NCBI GenBank assembly: GCA_032718475.1
Contig: JAUCBJ010001662.1
Span: forward strand, 1 to 45,940
DNA: 45,940 bases
Origin: Nemertoderma westbladi
Taxonomy: Eukaryota > Animalia > Xenacoelomorpha
Direction: 5' to 3'
Under the pieces are notes generated by a model. It made no database searches. It saw nothing but the letters and a program-made list of their open reading frames with translations, and was not told where the DNA came from. Below are positions 3,065-45,940 of the stretch, one piece after another (positions within the stretch are counted from its first letter, which is position 1; the number at the start of each line of letters is the position of its first letter). A program made the position numbers and the translations under genes.

Positions 3065-5030
3065 ATGGCATAGAAATTAGTAAAGAAGAGAAAGTCGGAG
3101 AAGACTGGGAAAGAGTTGCTAGTGGACTTCACGCAGAGGCATCCGGAGGAGAAGACGAAGGGATACTACAAACTACTCCCAAAGGGTCACAGAGCACACG
3201 TGCTACAGGACCAGTTTAGGGAGATGCACGAGCGACGACTGGTCGGGACCTAAGGGACGCCGTTGTTGGACAACGCGATCCACGAGCATCTTCGTTATGT
3301 TGTGAAGGGAGGCGAGGCGAAGTTCGGGATACCGAAGTATCCGAGGGAACCACTGAGGAAGGAGTGGAGGAGATTTGTAGATTCCGTGGAGAGGGGCGGA
3401 TACATGGTCCTAGATGACGAAGGGACTGTGGAGGATGATGAGGGCTCGAGAAGGGGTCGGGAGGATCAGCTAGAACTATATGGCCGAAGTTAAACTGGTT
3501 GCCTAGGGTGGTGCAGGAGCTAGTGAGACAGAAAACTACGATCAAGGTGGGATCGGCAATCCACGACGACGCTGATAGGATTATTGGACCGGACACCTGC
3601 AATCTCCTGGACATGCAGGTCTATATGGCTATGACAAGACCAGAGGGATTGGCATTGGTGGAGAACACAGGACATTGCGGAGCTGTGGCAATGGGCCAAC
3701 TGATGGGACTCGTCTACCACAAGCAGATGGACTGGAACAAGTTCCGGGAAGAATACGGAGCGGAACTTGCGAACTCGCTGAAGTGGCTAGTGCGACCAGG
3801 AAAGCAGGAAGTGTATCAGTTCTGGAGGGGAGCGATGAAGATATATCAGAAGAGATATATCTTACTGGAGGATTGGATAATGATTGGTTTATTAAACCTA
3901 TTCATTACAGTGATTATAGGGAGGGAGCCGATGGCGTTTCTACTATCAGGAGCACCTCTGAATCACAGGAGAACCTTTAAGGTAGCCATCGAGGGTCTTG
4001 TAGACCATCTGGCGCTGAAGGGCGAGTCGGTATTTTTCGATACCCGACACCTAGTGGCCAGAGAGGTAGACACACCGTACAAGCGATGGAGGAAACTGGA
4101 GGCGGATAGGGTCGAGGAGAAGAGACTAGAGGAGGTCGCAAGGAGAGAAAGAAGGGAGGCAGCGGACAGAGAAGCAGATATAAGGGGAGAGGAGTATGAG
4201 TTTGAAGCTCAAGTCATAGACGAGAGGTGGGGATCGGAGACATCAGACGAATTTGGGCTGGAGGACGAACTGGGTTGGATGGAAGAAACACCGAGACAGT
4301 CAACATCGGGGTTGCAAGGAATACCCATGCCAGCAGGCTCTGAGGGCAACATTGGGAGGAAGAGACCGAGGGAGGTAGAAGGGTGGAAGGCTATGGGCAG
4401 ATACCAGGGTGGAAAGGGACACAGTGGATCAACCAGGCTACCAGGTTCGGATCCACTCCCGGCAGGGGAGGAAGAAGACGAGTTTGGGGCGATGCTGCCG
4501 ATAGAGAGGATTGCGGCCCCAGCAGGGGAAGAGGAGGAGGACGAGTTCGGGGCGATGCCGCCGATAGTAAGGATCGGCCACTCAGATACGGACTGGGTGG
4601 ACGGGAGGGTGTTGATGGACAGCGGGGCGGGGGGAGATCACCAAGAGGAGACTACCAGTCACGTATCAGGAGTTAGTGACAGCGGCATCGTACTGAGGGG
4701 TCATCAACACCAAAAGATACCTAGACAGATGGTCCCAGGAAATAGGATCGAATTCAGGGACTTTCTGGGGGAACACGTGCCGCGCGCGATGAAGATGATC
4801 TTGTGGGACGCTACCAGAGGGAGACAGGAGGGACACTCAGTGGGACCACCTGCGAAGTGATACTGGGAGTTGATAACACCTGTGCCCAAAGAACCAAAAA
4901 CGGGGCTTGGTAAGACGGTATCGGCGAGGATGAGTAGCCTCAAGGATAAACAGGAAGGAAGGAACAGGCAAGATGACGATATGGGCAAGGAACTCAGATG
5001 TTTCCCGAAGTCGGGAGGAGCAAACTAGAA
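3065..5030 (+). pseudogene. Disrupted intronless ORF with WRN/EXD-type DnaQ 3'-5' exonuclease-like motifs, probably from an unclassified mobile element
   Basis: MVLDDEG (ExoI-like DxE), LPRVVQELVRQKTTIKVGSAIHDDADRI (ExoII-like KVG..I..D), LLDMQ, FWRGAMKIYQKRYILLED (ExoIII-like). Strongly purine-rich. In-frame stops, plus a frame change near 3490. Confidence 0.55.
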
Positions 5031-5715: not shown

Positions 5716-6986
5716 ATAAATAATTACTCATGACCATAGCAACGGGGATTTCCCTCTTATACACTAATTGATGGTGGAATTTCTCAAAATTTTGTGAAAT
5801 ATGAACACTGAAGTATATAGAAACATCTTATGGACAAAAATTTCAAAATTAATTTATGTTTACTTACTATACTTGCATAGCAACATAGGTTTTCCATAGC
5901 AACCATAAAGTTTTTCATGGTATTCTAAGCAAAAACAAGTTTCCTGCATCATTATAATGCTATACATACATATCAACAGCGGATTTTGCATAGCAACGGT
6001 AAGTTTTTCATAGCAATGACGAATTTACCATAGTAACCTGGAACATATCTTAGCAACGGAGCGTTTTTGACAGCAATAAAAAGTTTTTTTCTTAGAGTGT
6101 TACATATGAGAGGCAATACATCCTTAGCAACAGCGATTTTTGCATAGCTACGAGGAATTTGGCTTTGATTTGGTACATTTTTGCATAACTACGACGAATT
6201 TGGAATTTATTGGAATTTGGTATATTGGTATTGGTATATTGGGCAACGTGGTGTTTATATAGCTAACTATATAGCTTCCAATACTTGACAACGCATCCCT
6301 TCATCAAATTAGAGCTTGAATACCATATTGGTCAAGTATTGGAAAGGTTCAAGGTTGTAATTTATGATAAGTGAATTGCAACATGTGAACGAATAAAGGA
6401 AGGTCCAAAAAACTTTAATAGGTTTATAAATTGTTATCTAGCTATATAAACACCACGTTGCCCAATATACCAATACCAATATACCAAATTCCAATAAATA
6501 CCAAATTCGTCGTAGTTATGCAAAAATCTACCAAATCAAAGCCAAATTCCTCGTAGCTATGCAAAATTCGCTGTTGCTAAGGATATATTGCCTCTCATAT
6601 GTAACATTCTAAGAAAAAAACTTGTTATTGCTGTCAAAAACGCTCCGTTGCTAAGATATGTTCCAGTTTGCTATGGTAAATTCGTCATTGCTATGAAAAA
6701 CTTACCGTTGCTATGCAAAATCCGCCGTTGATATGTAAAGCATTATAATGATGCAGGAAACTTGTTTTTGCTTAGAATACCATGAAAAACCTTATGGTTT
6801 CTATGGAAAACCTATGTTGCTATTCAAGTATAGTAAGTAAACATAAATAAATTTTGAAATTTTTGTCCATAATATGTTTCTATATGCTTCAGTGTTCATA
6901 TTTCACAAAATTTGGAGAAATTCCACCTATCAATTAGTGTATAAGAGGGAAATCTCCCGTTGCTATGGTCATGAGTAATTATTTAT
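5716..6986. mobile_element. Foldback/MITE: about 550-bp inverted arms with a 173-bp spacer
   Basis: 5716-6265 is the near-perfect reverse complement of 6439-6986 (ATAAATAATTACTCATGACCATAGCAACGGG... / ...CCCGTTGCTATGGTCATGAGTAATTATTTAT). Confidence 0.9.
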
Positions 6987-9873: not shown

Positions 9874-11088
9874 TATTGAATTCTGCTAATGTAACATTAC
9901 CGAGCAGTTCCTTTGGGGATGAAGCCGATCTTGCCACGGAAATCACCGGAATAATATGAAATGCAGTCCACATGTTGGGTGCATACACCAGCATTTCCCT
10001 GCTGCCTAGAAACAGCCACAACATTCTGATTGTTGATCACATCAAAAAAAATGGTCGAACCTACAGTATGTTGTTCCTCAACTCGTTCAGATGTGCAAAT
10101 TCATTCTTGATCAGCACGATCTTGACGGTTTACACTCAAACATATAATGCATAAACTCGTTAAGAATTGTAGACAAATCTGGCATAGATGAAGATTGGTC
10201 TGGAGTTTCGCTCATAGTTTCAGGTTATCCTTGATCAGGCCTACCAGTAGCAGTACTCTCAAAATACTCTGAATCACTTTAACTTTCAGCTCTATGAACT
10301 GCTTTTGTTTTTTCATAGACTGTTGTGCAGCTTTGCTATTTTGCAGGTAGGGTGTAGGCCTATTTCAGTATTTCTGTATTTGACAGTTTGTAGCCCAAAG
10401 TCAGAAATCAGACTAATCTAATAATACCACTTCGCCTCCGCGCAGCGATTCACAAACTCGCAGCGCAATGTTAAGTCTGGCTTGAGATTTCACTGATATA
10501 GAAGCTATATAATATATAAACATAGTAACCAGACTGGCATTAGCAATATAATATCATAATGACTGCATGATTAGTATTACAAGTTTACAATGGCATTATA
10601 ATAATACATATAATACTATACAGTTACTGGTATCTACATACAAGCAGTACTGCCGTCTCTCTGAATTGGCATCACATCCTAATAATCATACAGTAGACGG
10701 ACCTCACAAAAAACATAAAAGATAATTTTTGAAAAATTTAGAAAGTGTACACTTTTGGTGCATGTTTGGTTAGGTGTAGTCAGGATGAAAGTTTAATGTA
10801 ATTTTTCTTGAGTTGCCTTTTTTGGGGCACTTTCTCTATCTACTTTTTAACTACTCAACCGATTTTCGTTCATAATTTTTGAAACAACTTATCGAAAAAC
10901 TGATTTCAGATTCGGAATCTTCATAAAATTTTACATCGGAAAACAAATTAGAAAATAATGTCGAAAAAAGGCGCCTTGGAATTCATTAAGATATGGAATA
11001 ATTAATAGCACCCGGTGGGGCAGTGGGATATGCCATCACTGGAACAAGTTATCGTACCACCATTGGAACATACTACCAATAAACTTAC

Positions 11089-11781
11089 CTATTTTCCTTT
11101 CTTCATCCAATGTTTTACTATAAACCTCTTTCAAGTCCATTACACTTAGAGCACAGCTGTAGTATTGAACATGTGCAACATATCCGTTTTGCATCTGGCC
11201 AATGATGAAAGGGAAGTTCGCATCTCGAAACGAACGGCCATAATTCTTAAAAGTTTCATGCCATGATTTTGGTGTCGCTTCTGTGACATTGGTATCCACT
11301 TCTTGTAAGAATAACAGGCCTTCTTTTAATATGTTATCTATTGATACAGCTACCATATACCAGGTGTTACGAAGCCGTGTTACGGACCGCACAGGTACAG
11401 GAATGCGTCCCCCATTATTTTTATCCAAATAGTACATATGATTACTAGGATGATTAAACATAAGTGTAGCACCTGTCTTTACAATATCGCGATGTTGATA
11501 CCCAAACACAATATCACCTAGCCTTGTTTCGCCAACTGTTGTGTCATCTATACCTGTATTTTTTACAAAAGCCACTATTGTGAACGTCTCAGTGGATAAT
11601 TCATGTCGATGTTCAATTGAAATGTAAGACCCATTGAAAAATGTTGCCTGATTGACGACTCCAGCTGGGCCTGTACCATACTCAACGTTTCCTCTAATTG
11701 TGCCATGGAGGTTTCCACCCGTGTCTCTGGCTCCGTGTTGCTTACTCAAAGGCCAGTATGATTCGTATTGGCAACCATCAG
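11089..11781 (-). CDS. Host-gene exon encoding a LamG/concanavalin-A-like domain
   Basis: ttgtttcag|CTGATGG...AAATAG|gtaagt; 693 nt, phase 1-1; YWPL...GNV.Y..GP.G..NQA..FNGSYI...FTIVAF...WYMVAV...GYVAHVQYY..AL. Confidence 0.88.
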
Positions 11782-12299
11782 CTGAAACAATTAACAATAA
11801 TGATAACTTTTACATAAGTAAAGTAAGCAAAAAAAATTAATAGTAAAGTGTTGTATGTTCGTGTTCGTTGTCTTTAATTAGTAATCAACAATGTTAATTC
11901 GCTAAGGTGTATAAATCAATATTTCGTCTGTCGTTTGTAATTGTAATGAAAATTCTTGAAATATATTATATTCATTTCGCATAATTTAATTATTTATAAT
12001 TTTTTTAATTTAAATCGTATAATTTCTTTTCCACACAATTTCTTTTCCACACATCAAATTTTGCACTTTTAGATAAAATTTAATAGAAGAAATTTAACAT
12101 TTCAGGTGAATATCAAATATAAAAGGATCTTCACTGGAATTTTTTGAGAAGCAACAGATGTTGCCAGTAGCAGATGCTAGAAGTATTGACAACAAGATAA
12201 TATTGGTATTGAAATAATAATATATAATAATATAATATGGTATTGAAAACAATTAAAATGATATTAACTGAGTTGACAGTCTATTGTAGCATGTAGCTT

Positions 12300-18569: not shown

Positions 18570-18775
18570 ATAATGACTTGTGAGGGTTCTGAATCTGATG
18601 CAAAAATAAAACGGCACTTGACATAACTTGTATTTTTTGGCGGAGGGTGCAGAAATTGGTGCTTGTACCAAAATTTTAATCCATAAATAAGACTTCCAAA
18701 GAATTGGAGCTTTTAAAATATTTCCGCTTATATAATCAGCGCCCCAGAAAACCTAAAAATGTGAATTTAGAGCAC
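18570..18775 (-). repeat. Dispersed inverted relative of the element at 1-1504
   Basis: The reverse complement resembles 376-410 (AAATTCACATTTT.AGGTTTTC.GGGCGCTGATT) and the 163-bp unit. Confidence 0.55.
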
Positions 18776-18900: not shown

Positions 18901-20861
18901 CCGACTTTGCTAAGCTGTGCACAACGAAAGTTACTACAGTTATTCATTAATTAATCAATAATTATTGCTGTTCAATCTATTCAAGGAAATTCGTTGAGAC
19001 ATAATTATCAGATTCTGCATTTTTAAACTTCTGTTTCTCGCTAAGTTCCTTTGTTTCGGCCTATATGCTATATTATTTTTTTTTAGAAAGATAACTCTTT
19101 AATTAGGGCCATTATGTCAATTATTTTCTTAAAAATAACTCAAAAATATCCCTAGTGTTATAAAATGCTATGGCTACTAAATTTCAAATTTTTTAATATC
19201 TATAGTAAACAAGTTTTTGAAATATAAATTAAACTTATATTTGTATTTTAGATAGATGATTTAGTTATTATGGTCCATTTTGCATATCATTGCGGTGAAT
19301 CAACCTGTTATTTCTATTTGCAAGTAAAGTTATTGTTGTTAAGGGTTGCTAAGTGATCTACATTAAATTTAGAGTACTTTTATTAGTATTTTAAATAGAA
19401 GTTGACAACTACCTGTTAATTGCTTTAGGCCTGGCAGCTGTTATATAAACCACGCCATATGAGTGGAGCGTTTTCTGTGTGCTGGTCCAATGAGGAGCGA
19501 GCAGCAATGCCCACTAAGCATTACCCGTAGTAATACATTGCAGCTAACCTCAGCTCAATATATTAGTTTTGGGGCCCAAATCCCATTATTATCTCAACTC
19601 AATTCTAACTTGATTCTTCCTTAGTTAATTTCTTGTCATTTATATTAGTTTTGAATTTGAGCAATATGTTTTGCGTATATTAGTATAGAAATTGTCCTTG
19701 TAATAATATGTCCTAAAATATATTATATTTGAAAGTCGGTTTAATGTTTTAATGGATTAATGTTTTGGAAACGCTACAGCTTACAGCGGCCTTGTTGGGG
19801 CGTATAGGGTAATTAGGCGAAGGGATGAGACGCCTCAACGCACATTGGAAATAGTCAAGGGAAGTATGGGGCTTATTTTGGGCTAACAGATCGGTTTTGG
19901 GGGGCTAAATGGGTTTCAATACGTCCTAAAGATATAGTACTGCTTCATAGGTAACAGTATAATAAATTGGGAAGGAATGAATAAATTCAGTTGTATTTCC
20001 CGTTTTGAACCTGACTTGTTTGTAAATAAATTATATACCGCAAGTCAATCGGAGATTAAACTAAATTGGGGGGATACGCGAGTAAAAATAGGTCTTGCTT
20101 GTGTACGTTTTCGGGGCAAATGTTTTGGGTTAGTTAGGTATCATCCTTCATTGGTCCATTTAGAAAACTACGGGATATTTGTAATATGTGCCAAGTTTAG
20201 CCATTGGGCATAACCTATAGATAAGAAAATTGTCCTTAGATAATTTGTACTATTCTAGAACGAGAGTGTAGTGTTACAGTACAGATCAGTCATTCTAGAA
20301 CTGTAAAATCGGTTTTCTAAGGAGGGATGGAATCCTGGTGAGTCTCAAACATTTCTGGCCTATTTTAAATTTAGGTTTATATTTTAATGCGGTAACAATC
20401 TGTAGTCAGGATTTTTTGGCTTATAAATCAAATATATATTTCGCATCTACACTTACTGTAAATTATAAAGGTGATAGTAACAGGTGCTATTACATTGAAG
20501 TCCTGGACCAGCGTTTTCCTTTGCTTGCGATAGATAATTAGTTTTCCCTGGCGGGGGAGTTTTTATTTCGAAATAAATTATATATTTTGCTGGAGGAATT
20601 TGAGATCGAAATTTTAGTTTATACTAAGATTGTGGATCGAAGATTCGTTGGATATTATTTGGTTCCTACGAATTCTACTGTACAAGTGTCCTATCAACAA
20701 CTTGGTTTGATGTGAGTGACTTTCGGACTAAACTGAAATTAGAAATTCTACACCCCAAATGTTGACGACCCCCTCCCTCCTCTAGCACATGCACCTCTAG
20801 CAGTAATTTCTTTCACAATTTATTTATTCGAATTCATTTAGAAACTGGATCATAAACTCAC

Positions 20862-21572
20862 CATTTTCCTGTTCAAAAGCCAGACCCTCCTCATAAATGT
20901 CATTCAGATGTGTCAGAGTATAATAACAGCCGTAATATCGGACATGGGCGACATGCCCGAGCTGTTTTCTTGAATCCTTCTCATCAAATCCTATGTTGAA
21001 ATTGCTGGTCCTATCTGGAGGACATCTGCCAGTAAAATGAGAATCAAACAGTTTCGTTGTTACTACATTTGTCCCTACAATTCGACTATAAAGAAGTGTT
21101 TTTCCAGTCGCAGCATTGACCCCCACTGCAATCATGTACCACGTGCCAGTAGTGAGTGCATTATCTGCTGTCATTGATTGCGCGCCACCACAGCTGTACC
21201 ATAGGGAAGTCGGTTGAAGATAGTTCCATAAATGTGTACCTCTTTCGTTCTGACCACCATAACCTAATATAGGGCCAGCTTGGTTGCCTGGCTTAAAAAA
21301 TGCAACTATGGTGAAGGTGTTGTCCATTAACTGGTTAGCCGCATGTGGGAATGAAATGTATCCATTGGCAAATTCCATGGCTTGATTAACGATGCCACTT
21401 GGTCCAGGGACATATCTTACAGTGCCCTTTACGTTGTTAGTGTTTCCTGGGTGGTTATCATCTTGCGATTGGTAGGAAAGTGGTTTAGCAATTTCCAGTA
21501 TGTCATTTCCGACATAGTTGTTGTTCAATGGCCACCATGATCCATGGGGCACATAGTTTACACTACATGGAT
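20862..21572 (-). CDS. Host-gene exon encoding a LamG/concanavalin-A-like domain, paralogous to 11089-11781
   Basis: ttattatttcag|ATCCATGT...AAAATG|gtgagt; 711 nt, phase 1-1; WWPLN...GTVRY..GPSG..NQA..F.NGYI...FTIVAF...WYMIAV...GHVAHVRYY. Confidence 0.88.
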
Positions 21573-21586
21573 CTGAAATAATAAAA

Positions 21587-21976
21587 AATATGATATAAAA
21601 AGTTGAGTCGAAATTGTAGCTTTTTGCGATTGGGATAAAAGTGGTTTAGCAATTTCCAATATACCATTTCCGACATAGTTGTTGTTCAATGACCACCATG
21701 ATCCATGGGGCACATAGTTTACACAACATGGATGGTGGGGGGGGGGGGGGGGGGGGGGGACTGGACGCAATACAAATTCATCCCTCTCAAAGGGAAATTC
21801 GACGCAAATGACAGCTGATTATTCTCAAAAATAAAACTGTAACCTGTTTTATTGTGCTTAGTTTATTTTTTTTGGTTCAAATAACGTGCCACTTTAACCT
21901 GCTCCTTCCCTAAATTGAGAATTTAACATTGAGGCGGGATATTAATTCGCCAAGGCCGGATTTGCGTCCAGTTTCC

Positions 21977-22125: not shown

Positions 22126-22376
22126 TCAATCTGCGACACGCCGACTTTAGGGCATTCATCATTACAATTATTAAACTGGATAAGTACTGTTTTATTTGCC
22201 CCGGTGAACTTACGTTGAAAAAAGGTTTACAGTTTTAATCGATTAATTTCTGCCTTCTAGGGCCATCATCACGATAAATAATTACGGTTACTTTATTTAC
22301 ATGTTACGTAGACAGGCAGTTACAATATAAAATTAATGTACAAAGTTCATACCTACACCTAAGATGCACTGACGGG

Positions 22377-22620
22377 TGTCGTAAATATTGTACTATTACG
22401 AGTTCAAACTGATAGTATGATCTAAGTTCCCTTACTTTTTCTTGTTACTTAGTATTTCGGTGTTGGGTGATGTATTGATGTATGCAGTGATATACTGCTG
22501 TATTGAGCTGTGTACCTGGTACCGGTCTCATGTAAACCTTTTGTACTTATTATATATATTATATAGCAATAATATGAGAACTGCAACTGCGACCATTCTG
22601 CCATTATGGATATTTTAACA
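22377..22620 (+). repeat. 5' LTR
   Basis: Identical by eye to 29109-29352. Confidence 0.97.
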
Positions 22621-22638
22621 TGGTAGCAGAGCGTGGTT
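22621..22638 (+). promoter_or_regulatory. Primer-binding site, probably initiator tRNA-Met
   Basis: TGGTAGCAGAGCGTGGTT immediately follows the LTR and is complementary to the ...CTCTGCTACCA 3' end of animal tRNAiMet. Confidence 0.8.
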
Positions 22639-23027
22639 AGTGTTTTCATTCCAAAATTAGATGCGACTCCAGGACTCTCCATAATGGCAAGAAATCCGAA
22701 TATTGCTAATACGCTGACAGCCAAGATCGATACTGCTGTACTGGTAGGCAGACGATAACCAGCTGGGATGATGACCGGCCGACCAGTCCACGCAGTGCCT
22801 GGTAATTAATAAACTGAACCGAATACTGGAATACGATACTAGCATACCGGTCTGACGGTACCTGGGTACTGCTGAATAATCTGATATTTGCGAACCGGTA
22901 CCGGTACTGACTGCGATACCGATACCGGCAACCGATATACTGAATTCAGATTTTTTGCGGTACTTTTTTCTGGTTAGGCTGTTAGGCCTGTATGGTAGGC
23001 CTAAGGGCTGTGCTGCTGTGAGTTACA

Positions 23028-26000
23028 ATGAGTACCGGAACCGCTGCCCCTGCCACTAGGGTTAAAGATAAAACTCTAGGAGGGAAGAAAGATGAAACAA
23101 TACATTACTGTGGTGGGAAAAGCAGAAAGTGTGTGAATAAAATATCAAACAATAATTTGCGATTTATGCAAACAATTCTGGTGTGTTAAATGTGTTAATG
23201 ACGATTATCCGAATTCTTTACCCGATTCTTTGTACAATAACCTACCAGATGAGTTTGAGTGGAGTTGTTCCGAATGTTCTACATTAAGTCTACCACAATG
23301 TTTAATAGTAAATGAAGTTTTTGATGAGAAAAGTTTACGTAAATTTGGATGTGAAATCGAATTTTCCGATGAGTTTAATAGATTATTAATCCATAAAAGG
23401 CAAGGAAAAAATAAAAAGCGCACTGAGCCCTTAACCTTAAGTGATAACGAGTATTGTAATGAGAACAGTGCGAAACTGAATGACAACAGTGATAAGCGAC
23501 AGAATGATGAAATTATTAAATTATTATCAAACCAATTACATCAACAAATGCTATTTATGGATCAGATGAGGCGAGACCAAATATTAGCTCAAGAAATACA
23601 TAGAGAAGAATTGAAACGAATGATAGGTTCACAAGAGATTGATCGTGAGCATACCCGAGAAATAATGAGAGAAATGATGAGCCAAAATTCGAGTAGCGAA
23701 ATGAGGCATAGTGATATGCGATTTGGACACCAAGGGGTGAGTGTGCCTAGTTCATCTACGAGGTCAAGAATTAAACTTCCGAAAATTGATTTACCTATAT
23801 TTTATGGTGATCAGTTGAAATGGCTAGGCTGGTGGACTTCATTTAAAACAGCAATACATGAACATTCTGAGTTATCAGGTGGTGAAAAACTAACTTATTT
23901 ACGCATGAGCTGTAAAGGAAAGGCATTTGCAGCGATTGAAGGTTTTGAAGTTACTGAATCAAATTACAATAAGGCTATAGATAAACTTACTGAACAATTT
24001 GGTAGACTGGAGGTTCAAATACGAGCTCATTATGACTGTTTATACTCCATACAGTGTCAGAGCAACCCTTCTACTAAACAGTTACGAAAATTTACTGACA
24101 CGATTGAACTACACTTACAACAAATGGAGTCCCTTGGGGAAGATGTCGAGCAACGGTCACTATTGTCTTTCCTTTTAGGGAAAGTGCCAAGAGATATAAT
24201 GGAAAAGTTAAGTAAACAAAAGGACAGGAAGGTTGAATGGTCTATGGAAAAATTCCGAGAGGCCATAAATGAGCTAATTCTACTCCGAGAGGATTTACTT
24301 CTGCAAAGTGGTATTTCAAAAACAACCGAGAGCAATTATGATTCAACAGGGCATAGTCATAATTATCATGATAACAGTGATATTAGATATGGCCGCAGTG
24401 ACAGCCGGAGTAAGTATAATGATAGGAGAGATGCTAGGCATATAGGTTATTATAAACGAAATAATTCAGGAAATTATCTATCGGAACGAAGTGTTCCATC
24501 CACAACAGAAACATTAATAACTAATTCTGTATGGTCTAAAACAAACAATAGTTGCCCATACTGCCAAGGTGAGCATTGGGCAGATGAGTGTCAACAGTAT
24601 AGTACTGTTGATGAACGTAAGGAGAAACTGGGATCAAACTGCCATCTGTGTTTAGGTAAGGGACACTTCAGACATCAGTGTAGAAAGCATTCTAGATGTT
24701 GGTATTGTGGGATGAATAACCATCATCATAGGAGTCTTTGTATAAAGCGAACAGAGAAACAAAATGACTCAATGCATAATAGTAGTAATAAGATAAAAAC
24801 AAATACAAATGATGCATCAAAAATAAAACCTAAATATGGAGGTCAACCACATACTTTAGTTACTGAAAGTAAAGAATGTGATGTAGCAATGAAAACGGCC
24901 ATTTCTACAGTTTTTAATCCTATGAATGGCAATGAGGCAGAGACGATAATATTTTTGGATTCAGGAAGCAAAAGAAGTTACATATCAGAAAGTTTAAGAC
25001 GAAAACTAAAAATAACTAACACTGAACGATATGAAACATTTTTATTGTGTACATTTGGGTCTGAGAGAATAAAGACTCAAATACTTCCAATTATTAAAAT
25101 GGGAATTATACCAAAATTCGGTCATACACAAACTATAGAATTTGCTGTAGTGCCACAGATAACAGGAACTGTTGGGCGTTTCGCCATCGATGAAGTTTTA
25201 GAAGCTGAATTAAAACAAAAGGTCAACTACCTAGCTGATAACTCACGAGATAGAAATTATCAAATGGAAGTTTTGATTGGAAATGATTATTATGATGAGT
25301 TTATAAACACAAAACGAATTCAAGTTAATGATGGTTTGTGCCTTCTAGAATCTAAATTTGGTTGGATCTTATCAGGTCGAGTGGAAGTTATTAATTTACA
25401 GAAGGATAACCAGTCAATGATGACATTACTATGTCATAACTCAATACTAAATGACCAATGTGAATATGTGGATAAGGTATTAGAGAAACCTAATATTGAA
25501 CTGTTCTGGAACCTAGAAACCCTTGGAATAAAGGAATCATGTGTAGCCAATGATGATGATAAGGCACTAAGGCAATTTAACAACTCTATAATCTTTGAAA
25601 ATGGACGTTTTGTTACTTGGCCATGGCGAGAAGATTTTGCAAGAGATCTACCCGACAACTATGAATTATGCCTAGGTCAATTAAAATCTGTACATAAAAA
25701 CGACTATTGAATGATAGAAAATTATTAGCTGATTATGATAATATTATAAAAGATCAAATATCGGAAGGGATTGTTGAAGAAGTTGAAATGAAAAAGGAAA
25801 ATTCTGCAAATTTGAAACATTATATCCCACATCATGCTGTGGTTAAACCAGATAAGGAAACCACAAAGGTACGAATTGTTTACAATGCAAGTGCTAAAAC
25901 AAAAAAGGGAAATAAGAGCCTCAATGAGTGCCTTTATTCAGGACCAGTTTTATTAGAAAACTTATGTGGTGTACTTTTACGATTTCGGATAAAACCAATT

Positions 26001-29000
26001 GCTATATTAGCAGATATAGAAAAGGCATTTTTGCAGGTTGGACTGTAAGTTCCAGATAGGGATGTGACGAGATTTATATGGTTGAAAGACTCAAATAGAA
26101 CATGTACTTCAGATAATATAATGGTCTTACGATTTACGAGAGTTCCATTTGGAGTTGTTACAAGCTTGTTTCTATTATTGGCTGTAATAATATTCCACCT
26201 GAATACATTGGGAACTAAAGTTGCACTGCAAATTAAAGATAAAACTTATATGCAGATAACATTGCTACTGGGGTAGATAGTGTTAAGGAAGCGAAGGAGT
26301 TTTATTCTGAAGCAAAGAATATATTTAAAGAAGCATCTATGAATTTACGAAGTTGGCAATCCAATAGCAAAGAATTAAGAGACATTGTGAATCCAGAAGA
26401 TCGATCGATTGCTGAAATTATCAAAGTGTTAGGCCTATGTTGGAATGTCAATGATGATACATTTTCAATATCAAAATTTAAAATGTTGAAACCAGATGAG
26501 TGGACGAAAAGGTTGGCTTGGAAAGCACATTCTAGTGTATTTGACCCTCTTGGATTTTTTGCACCAGTATTGCTTCGAACAAAACTGTTTCTACAAAGGT
26601 TATGGAAAGAAAAACTTGATTGGGACGCACGATTTTCGATTGCACAGTCAGTAGAGTGGAATAAATTACTAGATAGTATAGTTAATATCAATGCGGTAAA
26701 ACTAAATAGAAGTTTCTGTGCTGCTGTTGCAAATAACTACCGATTGATTATATGGATTTGGAGATGCTTCTGCCCAGGCTTATGCAACATGTGTATTTCT
26801 GGTGAAAGAATATGCAAATGAATGTAACAAATTATGTTATGAACCACTGTTGGTGTTTGCTAAAAGTCGACTGATAGAACCAAAGAAACACCAATCAACA
26901 AAACAGCAACCATCAATTCCAAGACTTGAACTTCTTGGCATGTGGATAACATCAAATGCTGTAACTTTCTGCAAAAATCAACTTCGAAATATCCAGATTG
27001 TTGATACTATTATATTTTCTGACTCACTATGTGTACTTTATTGGCTGAAATCTAAGAAGCAAATAGGGGCATTTGTAGATAGACGACTGCATGATATTCG
27101 AAATACTGGTTACGAATTCAGATATGTTATTTCAAAGGACAACCCTTCAGATATTGCAAGTCGAGGTTGTTCCATTGACGAATTGATTGACAATAAGATT
27201 TGGTGGAAGGGGCCAGAGTGGCTTTCATGTGACCCGAATGAGTGGGAGTCAACAAAACTTCCTCCAATAACACCCGAGTATATTAAACTATGTGATGAGG
27301 CGTCAAAACCGGCAAAGGAGTTATACAGTATGTCATTACTTGCCCATCCTCAGAAAAAAACAAGAATATAGAGAGAACACTGAATGGAAATTTTTAGAAG
27401 AATTTGGAAACAAATATTCAAATCTGTCAAATGCGATTCGGGTAATGGTTTACATTTTACGGTTCATTACTCCAAAATCTAAACGTTTGCAGATAAATAA
27501 TGATCTTGTTATGAACTGTATTGTTTCTGAAGAAATTAAATTAGCAGAAACAAAACTAATACATCTTATACAAATTCAACATTTCGGCGACATGATACAT
27601 GCAATTAACCATAATGAGACGAACGAGTTGAAGCGAGCATTAGGTTGTTTTATTGATGATGATGATATTATTCGATGCAGGGGATGATTCACTTATGCTG
27701 AACCATTAAATGGTTTCCCAATATTACTCCCGAAAAGATCATGGTTTACAAAATTATTGGTAGAAAGAGTACATAAATTAAACTTCCATGTTGGTGTATC
27801 ACATACTTTGGCTTTAGTTAGAAGACATTTTTGGATAATACATGGAAGATCTGTTGTTCGATCAATATTATTGAAATGTATAATGTGTAAAAAGGTAGAT
27901 GGGCAATCATATAAACTTCCTCCGATAGCTCCATTGCCAAAGGAGCATATTATGAGATCACTTCCCTTTGAATATTCTGGATTGGATTATATGGGACCAC
28001 TACTCGGAAGAAACGATGCAAACGAAGTCCAAAAGATTTGGATTTGTCTGTTTACATGCATGGCTACTCGAGGTGTTAGATTGGAATTAGTTCGAGACCA
28101 AGGAACTGAAGAGTTTTTATTTTGTTTTAGGCGATTTAAAGCGAGATCAGGGAAGATATCAATGTTCATATCTGATAATGCTTCTCAATTTAAACTGGCA
28201 CGATCTGTATTGGAAGCTGTGTTAAGTGACGGCATAAAGTGGCGATTTATCCCTGAAATGTCCCCTTGGATGGGTGGCTTTTACGAAAGGCTTATTGGCT
28301 TGATAAAAAAGATCTTAAAGAAATTACTACGAAAGACGTGCTTGACTATAAGGCAACTTGAATGCCTGTTATTAGAAATTGAACCTATAATAAATAGTCG
28401 ACCTCTGCTATATGTAGGAAATGATATAGACTCAGGGTATACTTTATGTCCAAATGATTTCTTAGGTGCATTTTTAGAATGTGGATCCTATGAAGATGTA
28501 TTAAGAGATTCAAATTATCAACCAGCCATTCCGACACTTAAGGAAAGTTTGATTAGTGCATGGACTCATGGAAAGGAACATATTGATTCTGTCTGGAAAG
28601 CTTTCTATGACGAATATTTACATAGTCTCCAAGAGCGAACACAAACTGACCATAAGGGTAGAAAGGGACAGTTGGTAGATAAACCACAAATTGGAGATAT
28701 TGTTTTGATAAAGGATGATGGGCCACGAGGACGTTGGAAACTGGCAGTTATTGATTCTTTGAACACCAGTAATGATGAAGAAGTTAGAAGAGCTGTTGTG
28801 AGATTCATTATCGAGAATAAAAGGAAGGTAAAAGTAAGTCGAGTAACTCGACCAATTAACATGTTGTTTCCATTGGAATTAAACGAGAGATGTATTGAAC
28901 CAAACTCTGTGATGAATAAGAATACTAACTGTTCTGATTCCCGCATTTCAAAACATACCACTAATGACCGTGAATGTCAACGACCTAAAAGAAAAGCTGC

Positions 29001-29040
29001 GGAGAGAGCTAAGAAATTAATAGCGGAAGGATTGTGTTAG
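23028..29040 (+). pseudogene. Disrupted BEL/Pao gag-pol: PHD finger, gag, three Cys/His knuckles, aspartic protease, RT, RNase H, integrase
   Basis: ICDLCKQFWCVKC...WSCSEC, KLPKIDLPIFYG, CPYC..EH..C / CHLC..GH..C / CWYC..HH..LC, FLDSGSKRSYI, YIPHHAV, ADIEKAFLQV, FDPLG, IPRLEL, NPSDIASRG, GLDYMGP, SDNASQF, GFYERLI. Several frameshifts, and stops at 26046-26048 and 27685-27687. Confidence 0.93.
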
Positions 29041-29108
29041 TAGAAATAAATTAAACTTAAATCAAGACAAAGTCATCACTGGTCCGGTAGTATTTCCTTT
29101 CGTGGGAG

Positions 29109-29352
29109 TGTCGTAAATATTGTACTATTACGAGTTCAAACTGATAGTATGATCTAAGTTCCCTTACTTTTTCTTGTTACTTAGTATTTCGGTGTTGGGT
29201 GATGTATTGATGTATGCAGTGATATACTGCTGTATTGAGCTGTGTACCTGGTACCGGTCTCATGTAAACCTTTTGTACTTATTATATATATTATATAGCA
29301 ATAATATGAGAACTGCAACTGCGACCATTCTGCCATTATGGATATTTTAACA
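29109..29352 (+). repeat. 3' LTR
   Basis: Identical by eye to 22377-22620. Confidence 0.97.
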
Positions 29353-42929: not shown

Positions 42930-44204
42930 GTCTGTCTACAGTACGTCCAGAATTGTACATACAGTCACATTTCGCATTACACCATCTGATGATGAGTGTG
43001 TGGTCAAAATGACTCAAGTCAACCAAAACTGACTTTTCAAGTTTTCTCTTCTAAAAGTACATGGTCTTAAAGAGCGGATGGTAAGATACCAAGTGGTTCT
43101 GGTTGAAATAGAGGCCAAATAATATTTCTGCCATATTTCCCAAAACTTTTTGGCTAGCAGTTGAGTGATTTTCCACACTTTTTTACTGTAACTATCACTG
43201 TCTACTGTTATAGAGGTAGGTCACAGTGTAGTCGGCTCCTGCATAAGCAGGTGCACTGGTGTCAAAGCATACTGAGATTGTTTGTCGTCGGGAACCAAAG
43301 CGATTGGTCTAGTGTTTAGAATCACCTCCTCGATTTCGATCAACAAAGTGGTCAATTGGTCGTCTGTCAATATGCGTTGCACAGGTATTACTTTTACTAA
43401 GGCCATTTTGATAGATCCAATCAGCCTTTCCCAGACTCCGCCTCTCCATGGACTATCTGAAGGGTTGAAGTTCCAGACAATATTGTGGGGACGAAGTTCA
43501 TCTGAAATATGATTGTGATCTAACTTTTTTAAGGCTCTGGCAATTTCGTTCCGTGCACCTAAAAGTTTGTACCTTTGTCGCAATGTATGGATTTAACTAG
43601 TCCACATCTGGCAATAAATCGCCGCAAAGCCAGGATAAAAGCGTTGGTGGATAAATCTGTTACGCGTTCAATGTGAACTGCTCTACTGACCATGCAGGTA
43701 AAGATCAATCCCCAATGTTTCACCTGTACGCGTCCGGCTGTACGGGTCTAAACGCTTGTAGTCTAGCTAGTGGTAGTTCACTCATTTCTTGGCATCCTAT
43801 CCTAGCATGTACCTTCTTACAGATGATACAGTTGCGCGTCACTGAACTCAAAGCCTTACTGGGTCTAATAAATACAAACCTTGAATGCAAGTGAGATAGA
43901 CAGTGGTGTCTTCCTACGTGTTTAAGTCATATATGTGTGTCCAGTATCATAGCACGCTGTAATTCATGATGTTGCGGTATAATGATACCTAAAGTCAACG
44001 TTTTGGAGCCCGGACTTATGACAAAGTAAGCCTTTGTATATTATCGAACTCCAACTCAGTATTGGTGAAGACTTAATCTGTTTACCTTGATTGATTGATG
44101 TGAATTCTCGTGCGAAATATCGCAATTCATAATTTCGAATAGTATCAATCTCACAACTATCCATCTTAGTCAAGGTTAGTCTACATGGAAAGTCACGTTT
44201 GCCT
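42930..44204 (-). mobile_element. Decayed BEL/Pao integrase fragment
   Basis: FILALRRF, WNFNPSDSPWRGGVWERLIGSIK, LIEIE..LNTRPI...ALTPVHLL. Cut off at about 44204 by the tandem array. Confidence 0.85.
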
Positions 44205-44558
44205 TTATCAGATGTTGACAACTACGACTTTAGAGGGATTGTAATATTCATATTAAAACAATAAAATAGGACATGGGGTCTATTCCCTCAGATACTACCT
44301 AGCATTTAGGGCCACTTGGGCCACTGTTAGTACTCAGGCACTAGGCCCATCAAAAAACACAAAACAAAATACCAAATCGATTTTAGTGCTACATAAACCC
44401 AACCCAACTACCACAAGAAAAATTGCACCAAACCATACAGTAACTACAGGTTCCGGTAAGTATTGCACAAAATAGGCTATCCCATAAATTACGAAAAATA
44501 TAGGACATCTTGTCCGCCGAAAAAGGTAAGTCTAAGTAATAAATTTTATAGAAATAAA

Positions 44559-44630
44559 AGGGTTTCGGAGATTTAAACACTGAACCCTGGGATTCGTGGT
44601 TCTCCTCATCAGCAGTGTGCCACGAACCCC
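44559..44630 (-). ncRNA. Hammerhead ribozyme, non-circularly permuted (copy 1)
   Basis: Minus strand GGGGUUCGUGG-C-ACACUG-CUGAUGA-GGAGA-A-CCACGAAUCCC-AGGG-UU-CAGUGU-UUAAA-UCUCC-GAAA-CCCU. Invariant core CUGAUGA/GAAA/NUH with perfect stems I (6 bp), II (5 bp), III (4 bp + A-U) and an extra 11-bp helix. Confidence 0.8.
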
Positions 44631-45236
44631 ACCTCTACCCTAACAAAACTGCACCACTAAATGAAGACAATGACCAATAAATTAGAAATCCTACCGTACC
44701 ACCGAACAGAGTTGAAACCACCCACCCCCAATGTATGTTACCATCAGCCCCAAATGCATAAACATGATTTCCCAACTGAATGCAACCAACCCCAATTAGC
44801 ACCTACCGGTATGTACAGATATATGATCAGATTTTTAAACAAAATTGCGCAGATGTCAGGAAATACCCCTTTAAATATATAATTATCAGATGTTGACAAC
44901 TACGACTTTAGAGGGATTGTAATATTCATATTAAAACAATAAAATAGGACATGGGGTCTATTCCCTCAGATACTACCTAGCATTTAGGGCCACTTGGGCC
45001 ACTGTTAGTACTCAGGCACTAGGCCCATCAAAAAACACAAAACAAAATACCAAATCGATTTTAGTGCTACATAAACCCAACCCAACTACCACAAGAAAAA
45101 TTGCACCAAACCATACAGTAACTACAGGTTCCGGTAAGTATTGCACGAAATAGGCTATCCCATAAATTACGAAAAATATAGGACATCTTGTCCGCCGAAA
45201 AAGGTAAGTCTAAGTAATAAATTTTATAAAAATAAA

Positions 45237-45308
45237 AGGGTTTCGGAGATTTAAACACTGAACCCTGGGATTCGTGGTTCTCCTCATCAGCAGTGTGCCA
45301 CGAACCCC
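45237..45308 (-). ncRNA. Hammerhead ribozyme, non-circularly permuted (copy 2)
   Basis: Identical to 44559-44630, offset by 678 nt. Confidence 0.8.
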
Positions 45309-45916
45309 ACCTCTACCCTAACAAAACTGCACCACTAAATGAAGACAATGACCAATAAATTAGAAATCCTACCGTACCACCGAACAGAGTTGAAACCACC
45401 CACCCCCAATGAATGTTACCATCAGCCCCAAATGCATAAACATGATTTCCCAACTGAATGCAACCAACCCCAATTAGCACCTACCGGTATGTACAGATAT
45501 ATGATCAGATTTTTAAACAAAATTGCGCAGATGTCAGGAAATACCCCTTTAAATATATAATTATCAGATGTTGACAACTACGACTTTAGAGGGATTGTAA
45601 TATTCATATTAAAACAATAAAATAGGACATGGGGTCTATTCCCTCAGATACTACCTAGCATTTAGGGCCACTTGGGCCACTGTTAGTACTCAGGCACTAG
45701 GCCCATCAAAAACACAAAACAAAATACCAAATCGATTTTAGTGCTACATAAACCCAACCCAACTACCACAAGAAAAATTGCACCAAACCATACAGTAACT
45801 ACAGGTTCCGGTAAGTATTGCACGAAATAGGCTATCCCATAAATTACGAAAAATATAGGACATCTTGTCCGCCGAAAAAGGTATGTCTAAGTAATAAATT
45901 ATTTTATAAAAATAAA

Positions 45917-45940
45917 AGGGTTTCGGAGATTTAAACACTG
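45917..45940 (-). ncRNA. 3' portion of a third hammerhead copy, cut by the window edge
   Basis: Minus strand CAGUGU-UUAAA-UCUCC-GAAA-CCCU. Confidence 0.65.

Follow-up and report, generated by a model that had tools for sequence, protein, structure and literature searches.

A hammerhead ribozyme of type CSG in a tandem array of Nemertoderma westbladi, predicted to process a retrozyme-like element with a probable link to Naiads

The tandem array, its insertion site and its family

The window, as the whole stretch of 45,940 nucleotides analysed here is called, is animal DNA, with BEL/Pao elements (a metazoan group), LINE-type reverse transcriptases (RTs) and Penelope-type remnants. The best matches of the BEL integrase are 40–45% identical to it, and the named ones come from bivalves and a hemichordate. 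The decayed BEL/Pao integrase region at 43221 to 44204 of the minus strand is interrupted by a tandem array and represents the insertion site, being itself outside the inserted element. The array (44205 to 45940, minus strand) is made of 2.56 head-to-tail units of 678 bp that are 98.2–99.6% identical, differing by few substitutions and indels, with one intact hammerhead in each complete unit. Copy 1 of this type-CSG hammerhead, 72 nt with its core and four helices, is found at 44559 to 44630 and the identical copy 2 at 45237 to 45308, both on the minus strand, as is the 3' part of a third copy (45917 to 45940), at the predicted cut of which the window exactly ends. Two successive predicted cuts delimit a monomer of 678 nt (44583 to 45260, minus strand), which is U-rich, has a GC content of 38.9% and contains no protein family: five frames of the unit were scanned and none passed the Pfam cut-off, BLAST also returned none, and an open reading frame (ORF) of the Naiad type (N-terminal GIY-YIG, CxC and C-terminal RT) is absent from it. 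When closed to a circle, the predicted 678-nt RNA does not fold better than shuffled sequences (z −0.43). Just 5' of the ribozyme, in each full unit, lies the stop codon of a hydrophobic frame of 55 codons (44635 to 44802, minus strand), which was rejected as a gene, having no ATG and a Pfam match only below the cut-off.

The window closes on base 45940, which has the same phase in the unit as 44582 and 45260, and is thus the first base past the predicted cut. If this is also where the record ends, many genomic copies starting at the cut, and breaking the assembly there, would explain it; it is one position of 678, in one case, and could be due to chance. A sharp pile-up of copy starts at the cut is disfavoured by the copy 5' ends among those listed (at about 44585, 44586, 44589, 44614, 44622, 44626, 44647 and 44661), since three of them are 3–7 nt and five are 32–79 nt upstream of the cut and none is exactly there. 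The other end of the window begins in a poly-C run, and both ends may be assembly breaks.

Other copies of the BEL element run on past 44207 without the array in three sequencing runs (X1, X2 and X3). The junction between array and BEL element shows a 2–3 nt microhomology with the empty site and is located at the RNA 3' end, which is where target-primed reverse transcription would be expected to start. Inside the repeat, seven opposite-strand joints were detected in runs X1 and X2, about five of them distinct and each of low depth; they resemble the inverted copies described for Naiads, a feature that is not specific to Naiads. The repeat family occurs in three sequencing studies with one organism label, and in runs X1, X2 and X4 the contig depth over the motif, which is not a copy number, lies between the thousands and the tens of thousands. 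Run X3 includes a deeply covered 1210-nt contig that agrees with 44961 to 45072 and then continues into sequence outside the window; it may belong to a diverged subfamily, its first loose letters still resembling the unit. Run X5, which bears a different organism label and is RNA by our guess, contributes, at a small share, chiefly sequence of the BEL part, the unit being covered by a single 219-nt piece, and none of the runs listed is an RNA run with the repeat family.

The family is homogeneous: at a 1% share, 3 of 161 positions vary, and the only one of them within the ribozyme (1 of its 72 positions) corresponds to a rare core change at G12 that accounts for at most 1.8% of the depth. With a family so near to invariant, no covariation can be read inside it. 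This high homogeneity, along with units that differ by so few changes, is what would be expected of a satellite multiplied at the level of DNA, in which the ribozyme would be an inherited passenger, rarely transcribed or inactive. We regard a satellite as improbable, however, because the ribozyme core and all of its helix pairs are intact, and because the sharp junction with BEL, the inversion junctions and the end of the record at the cut better fit an RNA-mediated spread. Indeed, the presence of one motif per unit, the lack of coding sequence, the low GC content, the clean insertion into BEL, the inversion joints and the coincidence of record end and cut all lead to the reading of the array as an element, and it is likely that it spread through RNA in a non-autonomous manner.

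Strand order and fold of the hammerhead

Hammerheads of types I, II and III are circular permutations of one strand order. Eckert et al. (2023; PMC10085705) divided the hammerhead into three blocks, C, G and S, and named six orders. Twelve hammerhead segments had been claimed in a first-pass annotation of this DNA, and all of them were found on the minus strand where it had placed them. From 5' to 3', the first strand of the P helix (44620 to 44630; paired with a probability of 1.0 in each of three sequence contexts) is followed by block C (44601 to 44618), which comprises a stem I strand (44613 to 44618), the CUGAUGA core (44606 to 44612) and a stem II strand (44601 to 44605). The 3' strand of P (44589 to 44599) then abuts, without any spacer, the stem III strand (44585 to 44588) with which block S (44577 to 44588) begins, and which is followed by U16.1 and U17 (44584 to 44583) and by the second stem I strand (44577 to 44582). 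The 5-nt linker UUAAA (44572 to 44576), between stems I and II, leads to block G (44559 to 44571), formed by a stem II strand (44567 to 44571), GAAA (44563 to 44566) and a stem III strand (44559 to 44562). The non-circular succession of a CUGAUGA block, a cleavage block and a GAAA block had also been claimed, and a descriptor written for the six orders identifies it as CSG, the canonical circular order C, G, S of types I, II and III not being that of the array hammerhead.

The conserved core (CUGAnGA, GAAA and UH) is complete, stems I–III directly adjoin, and all of the 26 helix pairs are standard: 11 bp in P (10 Watson–Crick and one G-U), 6 bp in stem I, 5 bp in stem II and 4 bp in stem III, to which U16.1-A15.1 is added. 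The pairs G10.1-C11.1, G16.2-C15.2 and U16.1-A15.1 are all present. Five of the six possible helix combinations cross, P and stem III forming the sole exception, and the mutual crossing of stems I, II and III results in a pseudoknotted core with no three-way junction, as in type CSG; the connectivity of P also matches the published CSG alignment. Thus, pairing and descriptor match support the initial proposal of a pseudoknotted, non-circularly permuted hammerhead with a P helix, every structural feature of CSG that was examined is found in the array RNA, and we are close to certain that this RNA folds as a type-CSG hammerhead. The cut that had been predicted at GUU/C, between 44583 and 44582, follows from the pairing register and from analogy, and the hammerhead would probably be able to cleave.

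Calculated for separate duplexes, the energies are −18.7 kcal/mol for P, −6.1 kcal/mol for stem I, −5.6 kcal/mol for stem II and −5.8 kcal/mol for stem III. Nested folding programs show P and stem III alone, since five of the six helix combinations cross, with probabilities of 1.0 for P and 0.46–0.92, depending on the context, for stem III; the fold of a 96-nt construct is unremarkable (z −1.45). A decoy located 5' of the hammerhead (44637 to 44641, minus strand) is able to pair with the 3' strand of stem III and rivals the proper partner in the 96-nt construct (0.38 versus 0.46), whereas in three longer contexts its probability is 0 as compared with 0.68–0.81 for stem III. The decoy is unusable as a type III site: with cleavage at the GUA of 44638 to 44636 stem III can form, but only two of six stem I pairs do, and this reading was rejected.

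The descriptor covered all six block orders, with stems of at least 4, 4 and 3 bp and no requirement for a P helix. Allowing a span of 120 nt it matched the window twice, at 44612 and 45290, both times in the CSG order, and 150 dinucleotide shuffles of the window, searched on both strands with a span of 100 nt (the motif spans 72 nt), gave no match of any block order. A looser descriptor added one weak match in the window, within an RT frame. Rfam returned no match to the array hammerhead at the gathering score, and one unrelated match at E 7.2. An exact core-plus-linker pattern, of a kind that would miss most Naiad-type motifs, retrieved eight loci from metagenome contigs and eight from prokaryote genomes, none of them CSG, and 0, 55 and 39 loci from viral contigs, where one weak match (stems 5, 4, 2) was judged to be due to chance; over the 110 loci of the metagenome, viral and prokaryote scans there was no convincing CSG fold and no homologous locus. 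A scan for sigma-70 promoters, irrelevant for an animal, remained at chance level.

Published type CSG and the tails of Naiads

In the accessible text of Eckert et al. (PMC10085705), type CSG rests on two similar sequences, found in metagenomic soil DNA only, with modest covariation, no known host and no role, and its authors grade it as likely valid but less well supported; for the whole set of motifs that text gives none from a known organism, except for one GCS candidate. CSG-1 and CSG-2 cleave in vitro at the predicted bond, with rates of 0.004 and 0.026 per min, as single-copy constructs of 77–78 nt, and in their alignment stem I has 6 bp, stem II 5 bp, stem III 4 bp plus U-A and P 8 bp, with a I–II linker of 5 nt, UUAAU or UUAAA (PMC10085705). 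The array hammerhead is like them in block order, in the set of four helices and in the lengths of stems I–III, and its UUAAA linker is that of CSG-2, CSG-1 and two Pristionchus Naiads having YYAAW. It differs in the length of P (11 bp as opposed to 8 bp), in the spacer before stem III (none instead of 2 nt), in the cleavage triplet (GUU rather than GUC), in the stem sequences and in the setting, namely an animal genomic tandem array as compared with soil metagenome contigs without a host. GUU is usually slower than GUC.

The topology of the array hammerhead is not new, type CSG having been published (PMC10085705). The ribozyme is a further member of that type, what is new is the retrozyme-like element that carries it, and a search of the open-access literature revealed no report of CSG hammerheads from animals or Naiads. 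Type CSG would thereby be placed in the genome of an animal host and in a mobile element, and be given a role open to test. Type SGC, as described for HRIMA-1 and its variants (PMC10085705), shares with the array hammerhead a non-circular order, a pseudoknotted core and a helix bracing stems I and II, which in SGC is required, but it has another block order and comes from metatranscriptomes.

In the accessible parts of their report, Craig et al. (2021; PMC8557442) describe no canonical hammerhead in Naiads and flag cores and half-cores that fall outside the descriptors used. The ends of 19 of the 54 Naiad consensi were read by eye, up to about 600 nt each, and were complemented by motif searches that miss motifs across line breaks. 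The complete CSG order with a P helix was recognised, by eye and unscored by any program, in eight of them, which are seven of the eight nematode consensi and one of the three from spiders, and no CSG was seen in the remaining 11 ends. Five of the eight bear an HHR_core or HHR_half_core mark of the original authors (PMC8557442). Its place in the 3' non-coding tail ranges from the final bases to more than 600 nt inwards, and in each of these consensi it fits as a whole within about 100 nt. By giving the base pairs of P, I, II and III (the latter without the U-A pair), then the triplet and the I–II linker, the values are 11/6/5/11, GUC and 5 nt for Naiad_Parc, and almost identical for Ppac (placed by file order); 13/5/5/10, GUC and 3 nt for Nbra1; 13/5/5/5, GUC and 4 nt for Nbra2; 9/5/4/5, GUC and 5 nt for Nbra3; 15/6/5/10, GUC and 2 nt for Hcon; 17/5/5/8, GUU and 3 nt for Naiad_Hpol; and 10/6/5/11, GUC and 3 nt for the spider consensus Smim, with one mismatch in stem III and an extra U after A9.

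Naiad_Parc and the array hammerhead are alike in P (11 bp), stem I (6 bp) and stem II (5 bp), in both 1-nt spacers, in the spacerless link between P and stem III and in a 5-nt YYAAA linker, and Naiad_Hpol shares the GUU triplet with the array. A U is also listed at the cleavage site of several Hydra-clade hammerheads (PMC8557442 File S2). When the array motif, CSG-1/2 and the eight Naiad tails are compared by eye, with no statistic attached, each helix varies yet stays paired: pair 2.1-1.1 is G-C, A-U or U-A, pairs 10.2-11.2 and 16.3-15.3 are G-C, U-A or C-G, and pairs 10.1-11.1 and 16.2-15.2 are constantly G-C. The array motif and the Naiad tails thus bring nine more sequences in which the four helices vary and remain paired. 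A rule by which the length of P would track that of stem III fits the array motif, CSG-1/2, Hpol and Hcon and fails for Parc and Smim, and was abandoned. In Naiad_Amil, Lpol, Ptep and Ovul and, by file order, Plae and Bfor, GAAA precedes CUGANGA, with candidate helices, which suggests that non-canonical wirings of two or more kinds are in use among Naiads. The CSG reading also offers an answer to the question of why Naiads seemed to be without hammerheads.

For both SGC and CSG a direct link from P to stem III is difficult to reconcile with the crystal structure, according to the text of PMC10085705. This difficulty, and the finding reported in the literature that amphibian retrozyme hammerheads work better as dimers, would suit an active form in which neighbouring units swap strands, blocks C and G of one combining with block S of the next in a junction-like fold. 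The partner blocks are, however, 678 nt apart in the array. Minimal dimer-dependent hammerheads have stems II and III that are not of normal length, whereas those of the array hammerhead are normal. Furthermore, folding in trans between repeats is not needed, given that single-copy CSG constructs cleave, although monomer and dimer are not separated in the text (PMC10085705), and that the Naiad motif is complete within its short segment. Such a dimer is accordingly the least probable of the alternatives considered, and a very remote one.

Retrozyme character, candidate helper and proposed cycle

With metazoan non-LTR retrozymes the array has in common that it is non-coding, of low GC content and arranged head to tail, with one hammerhead per unit (PMC7229834). 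These elements are defined, and have been searched for, by their type I hammerheads, whereas that of the array is CSG, and the unit of 678 bp exceeds the 170–400 nt of classic retrozyme monomers; monomers across families span 51–972 bp (Li et al. 2026, bioRxiv 10.64898/2026.07.22.740005). Of the defining features of retrozymes, the array displays two or more successive units with a complete hammerhead and non-coding sequence with a GC content below 45–50% (38.9%), and it has neither a type I hammerhead nor a monomer of about 150–450 bp, by which it is classed as a variant of the non-LTR retrozyme. Retrozyme surveys that use type I descriptors would, by implication, miss a set of elements. An origin in Penelope-like pseudo-LTRs has been proposed for non-LTR retrozymes (PMC7229834; bioRxiv 10.64898/2026.07.22.740005), and in the literature vertebrate retrozymes are said to resemble the pseudo-LTRs of Penelope, and eight of the nine Xenopus retrozymes tested did not cleave.

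Taken together, we judge it reasonably probable that the array hammerhead cuts its own RNA at GUU/C and that the array is a non-autonomous, retrozyme-like element mobilised by a Penelope-like element of the Naiad type. As far as the helper on its own is concerned, a Naiad is the favoured candidate, at a confidence just below that of the whole proposal. The link is provided by the shared CSG architecture, and hammerheads, according to the literature, may arise repeatedly. Naiads have an ORF and the unit has none, the likeness being one of architecture. Tandem and inverted arrangements are typical of Naiads, and the array is tandem, with inversion joints, which are not specific to Naiads, in the contigs of its family. 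Tandem and inverted insertions have been described for Naiads and, in Chlamys, non-autonomous head-to-tail derivatives (PMC8557442).

The main rival explanation takes the unit to be a terminal repeat (pseudo-LTR) belonging to an autonomous Naiad, the ORF of which would lie past the end of the record or in other copies, with the ribozyme processing the full-length RNA. The position of the Naiad CSG motifs in the 3' non-coding tail would agree with it, as would the 1210-nt contig of run X3, which leaves the unit for sequence outside the window, although the likeness of its first loose letters to the unit may point to a diverged subfamily. By taking into account also that the 2.56 head-to-tail units contain no frame matching Pfam or the comparison proteins, we hold an autonomous Naiad to be unlikely, though less so than the other alternatives. 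It may also be considered that the ribozyme is real and had another helper, either a canonical Penelope/Neptune element or a restriction-endonuclease-like non-LTR element, with a convergent likeness to Naiads, as the window contains LINE-type RTs and a canonical Penelope-type remnant. The window has no other Penelope-like remnant, and this one, which belongs to the C-terminal endonuclease type, has no CUGANGA near its 3' end; among the retroelements that were read the CSG order appeared in Naiads alone; a helper of this kind is thus quite improbable, slightly more so than the satellite discussed above.

For a non-autonomous element mobilised by a Naiad, the following cycle can be proposed. Read-through transcription of the array would produce an RNA in which P may form first, bringing stems I and II together at their outer ends and replacing the loop–loop contact, after which stems I, II and III, for which the complementarity is evident, would close the standard core. 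Cuts at 44583/44582 and at the corresponding bond 678 nt upstream would free a 678-nt monomer. Hammerhead cleavage leaves a 5'-OH and a 2',3'-cyclic phosphate. The monomer may then be circularised by an RtcB-type ligase, by analogy with type I retrozyme monomers, which according to the literature RtcB circularises in vitro and which build up as circles. The helper RT would prime at a genomic nick and copy the circle, or a partly cut multimer, and such copying could yield both head-to-tail arrays and inverted junctions. By extension, the balance tips slightly in favour of CSG being the ribozyme that normally processes one branch of Naiads, in nematodes, a spider and this animal, where it would cut in vivo, the present array starting at the predicted cut, and drive retrozymes that are hidden from type I descriptors, with the two soil CSG sequences deriving from such elements in soil invertebrates.

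Elsewhere in the window, two LamG-like frames on the minus strand (11036 to 11809 and 20824 to 21645) are uninterrupted over about 250 codons and have no close relative, the best matches of the second being 24–33% identical. A frame of 472 codons on the plus strand (3442 to 4860) is GC-rich, with an acidic second half and no Pfam match. A BEL/Pao element at 22376 to 29352 has identical terminal repeats of 245 bp (22376 to 22620 and 29108 to 29352) and a broken pol region. An element of about 1.27 kb (5716 to 6986) consists almost wholly of inverted repeats with arms that are 96–100% complementary, and a 163-bp tandem repeat at 466 to 1151 has a related inverted copy 17 kb away, at 18625 to 18774.
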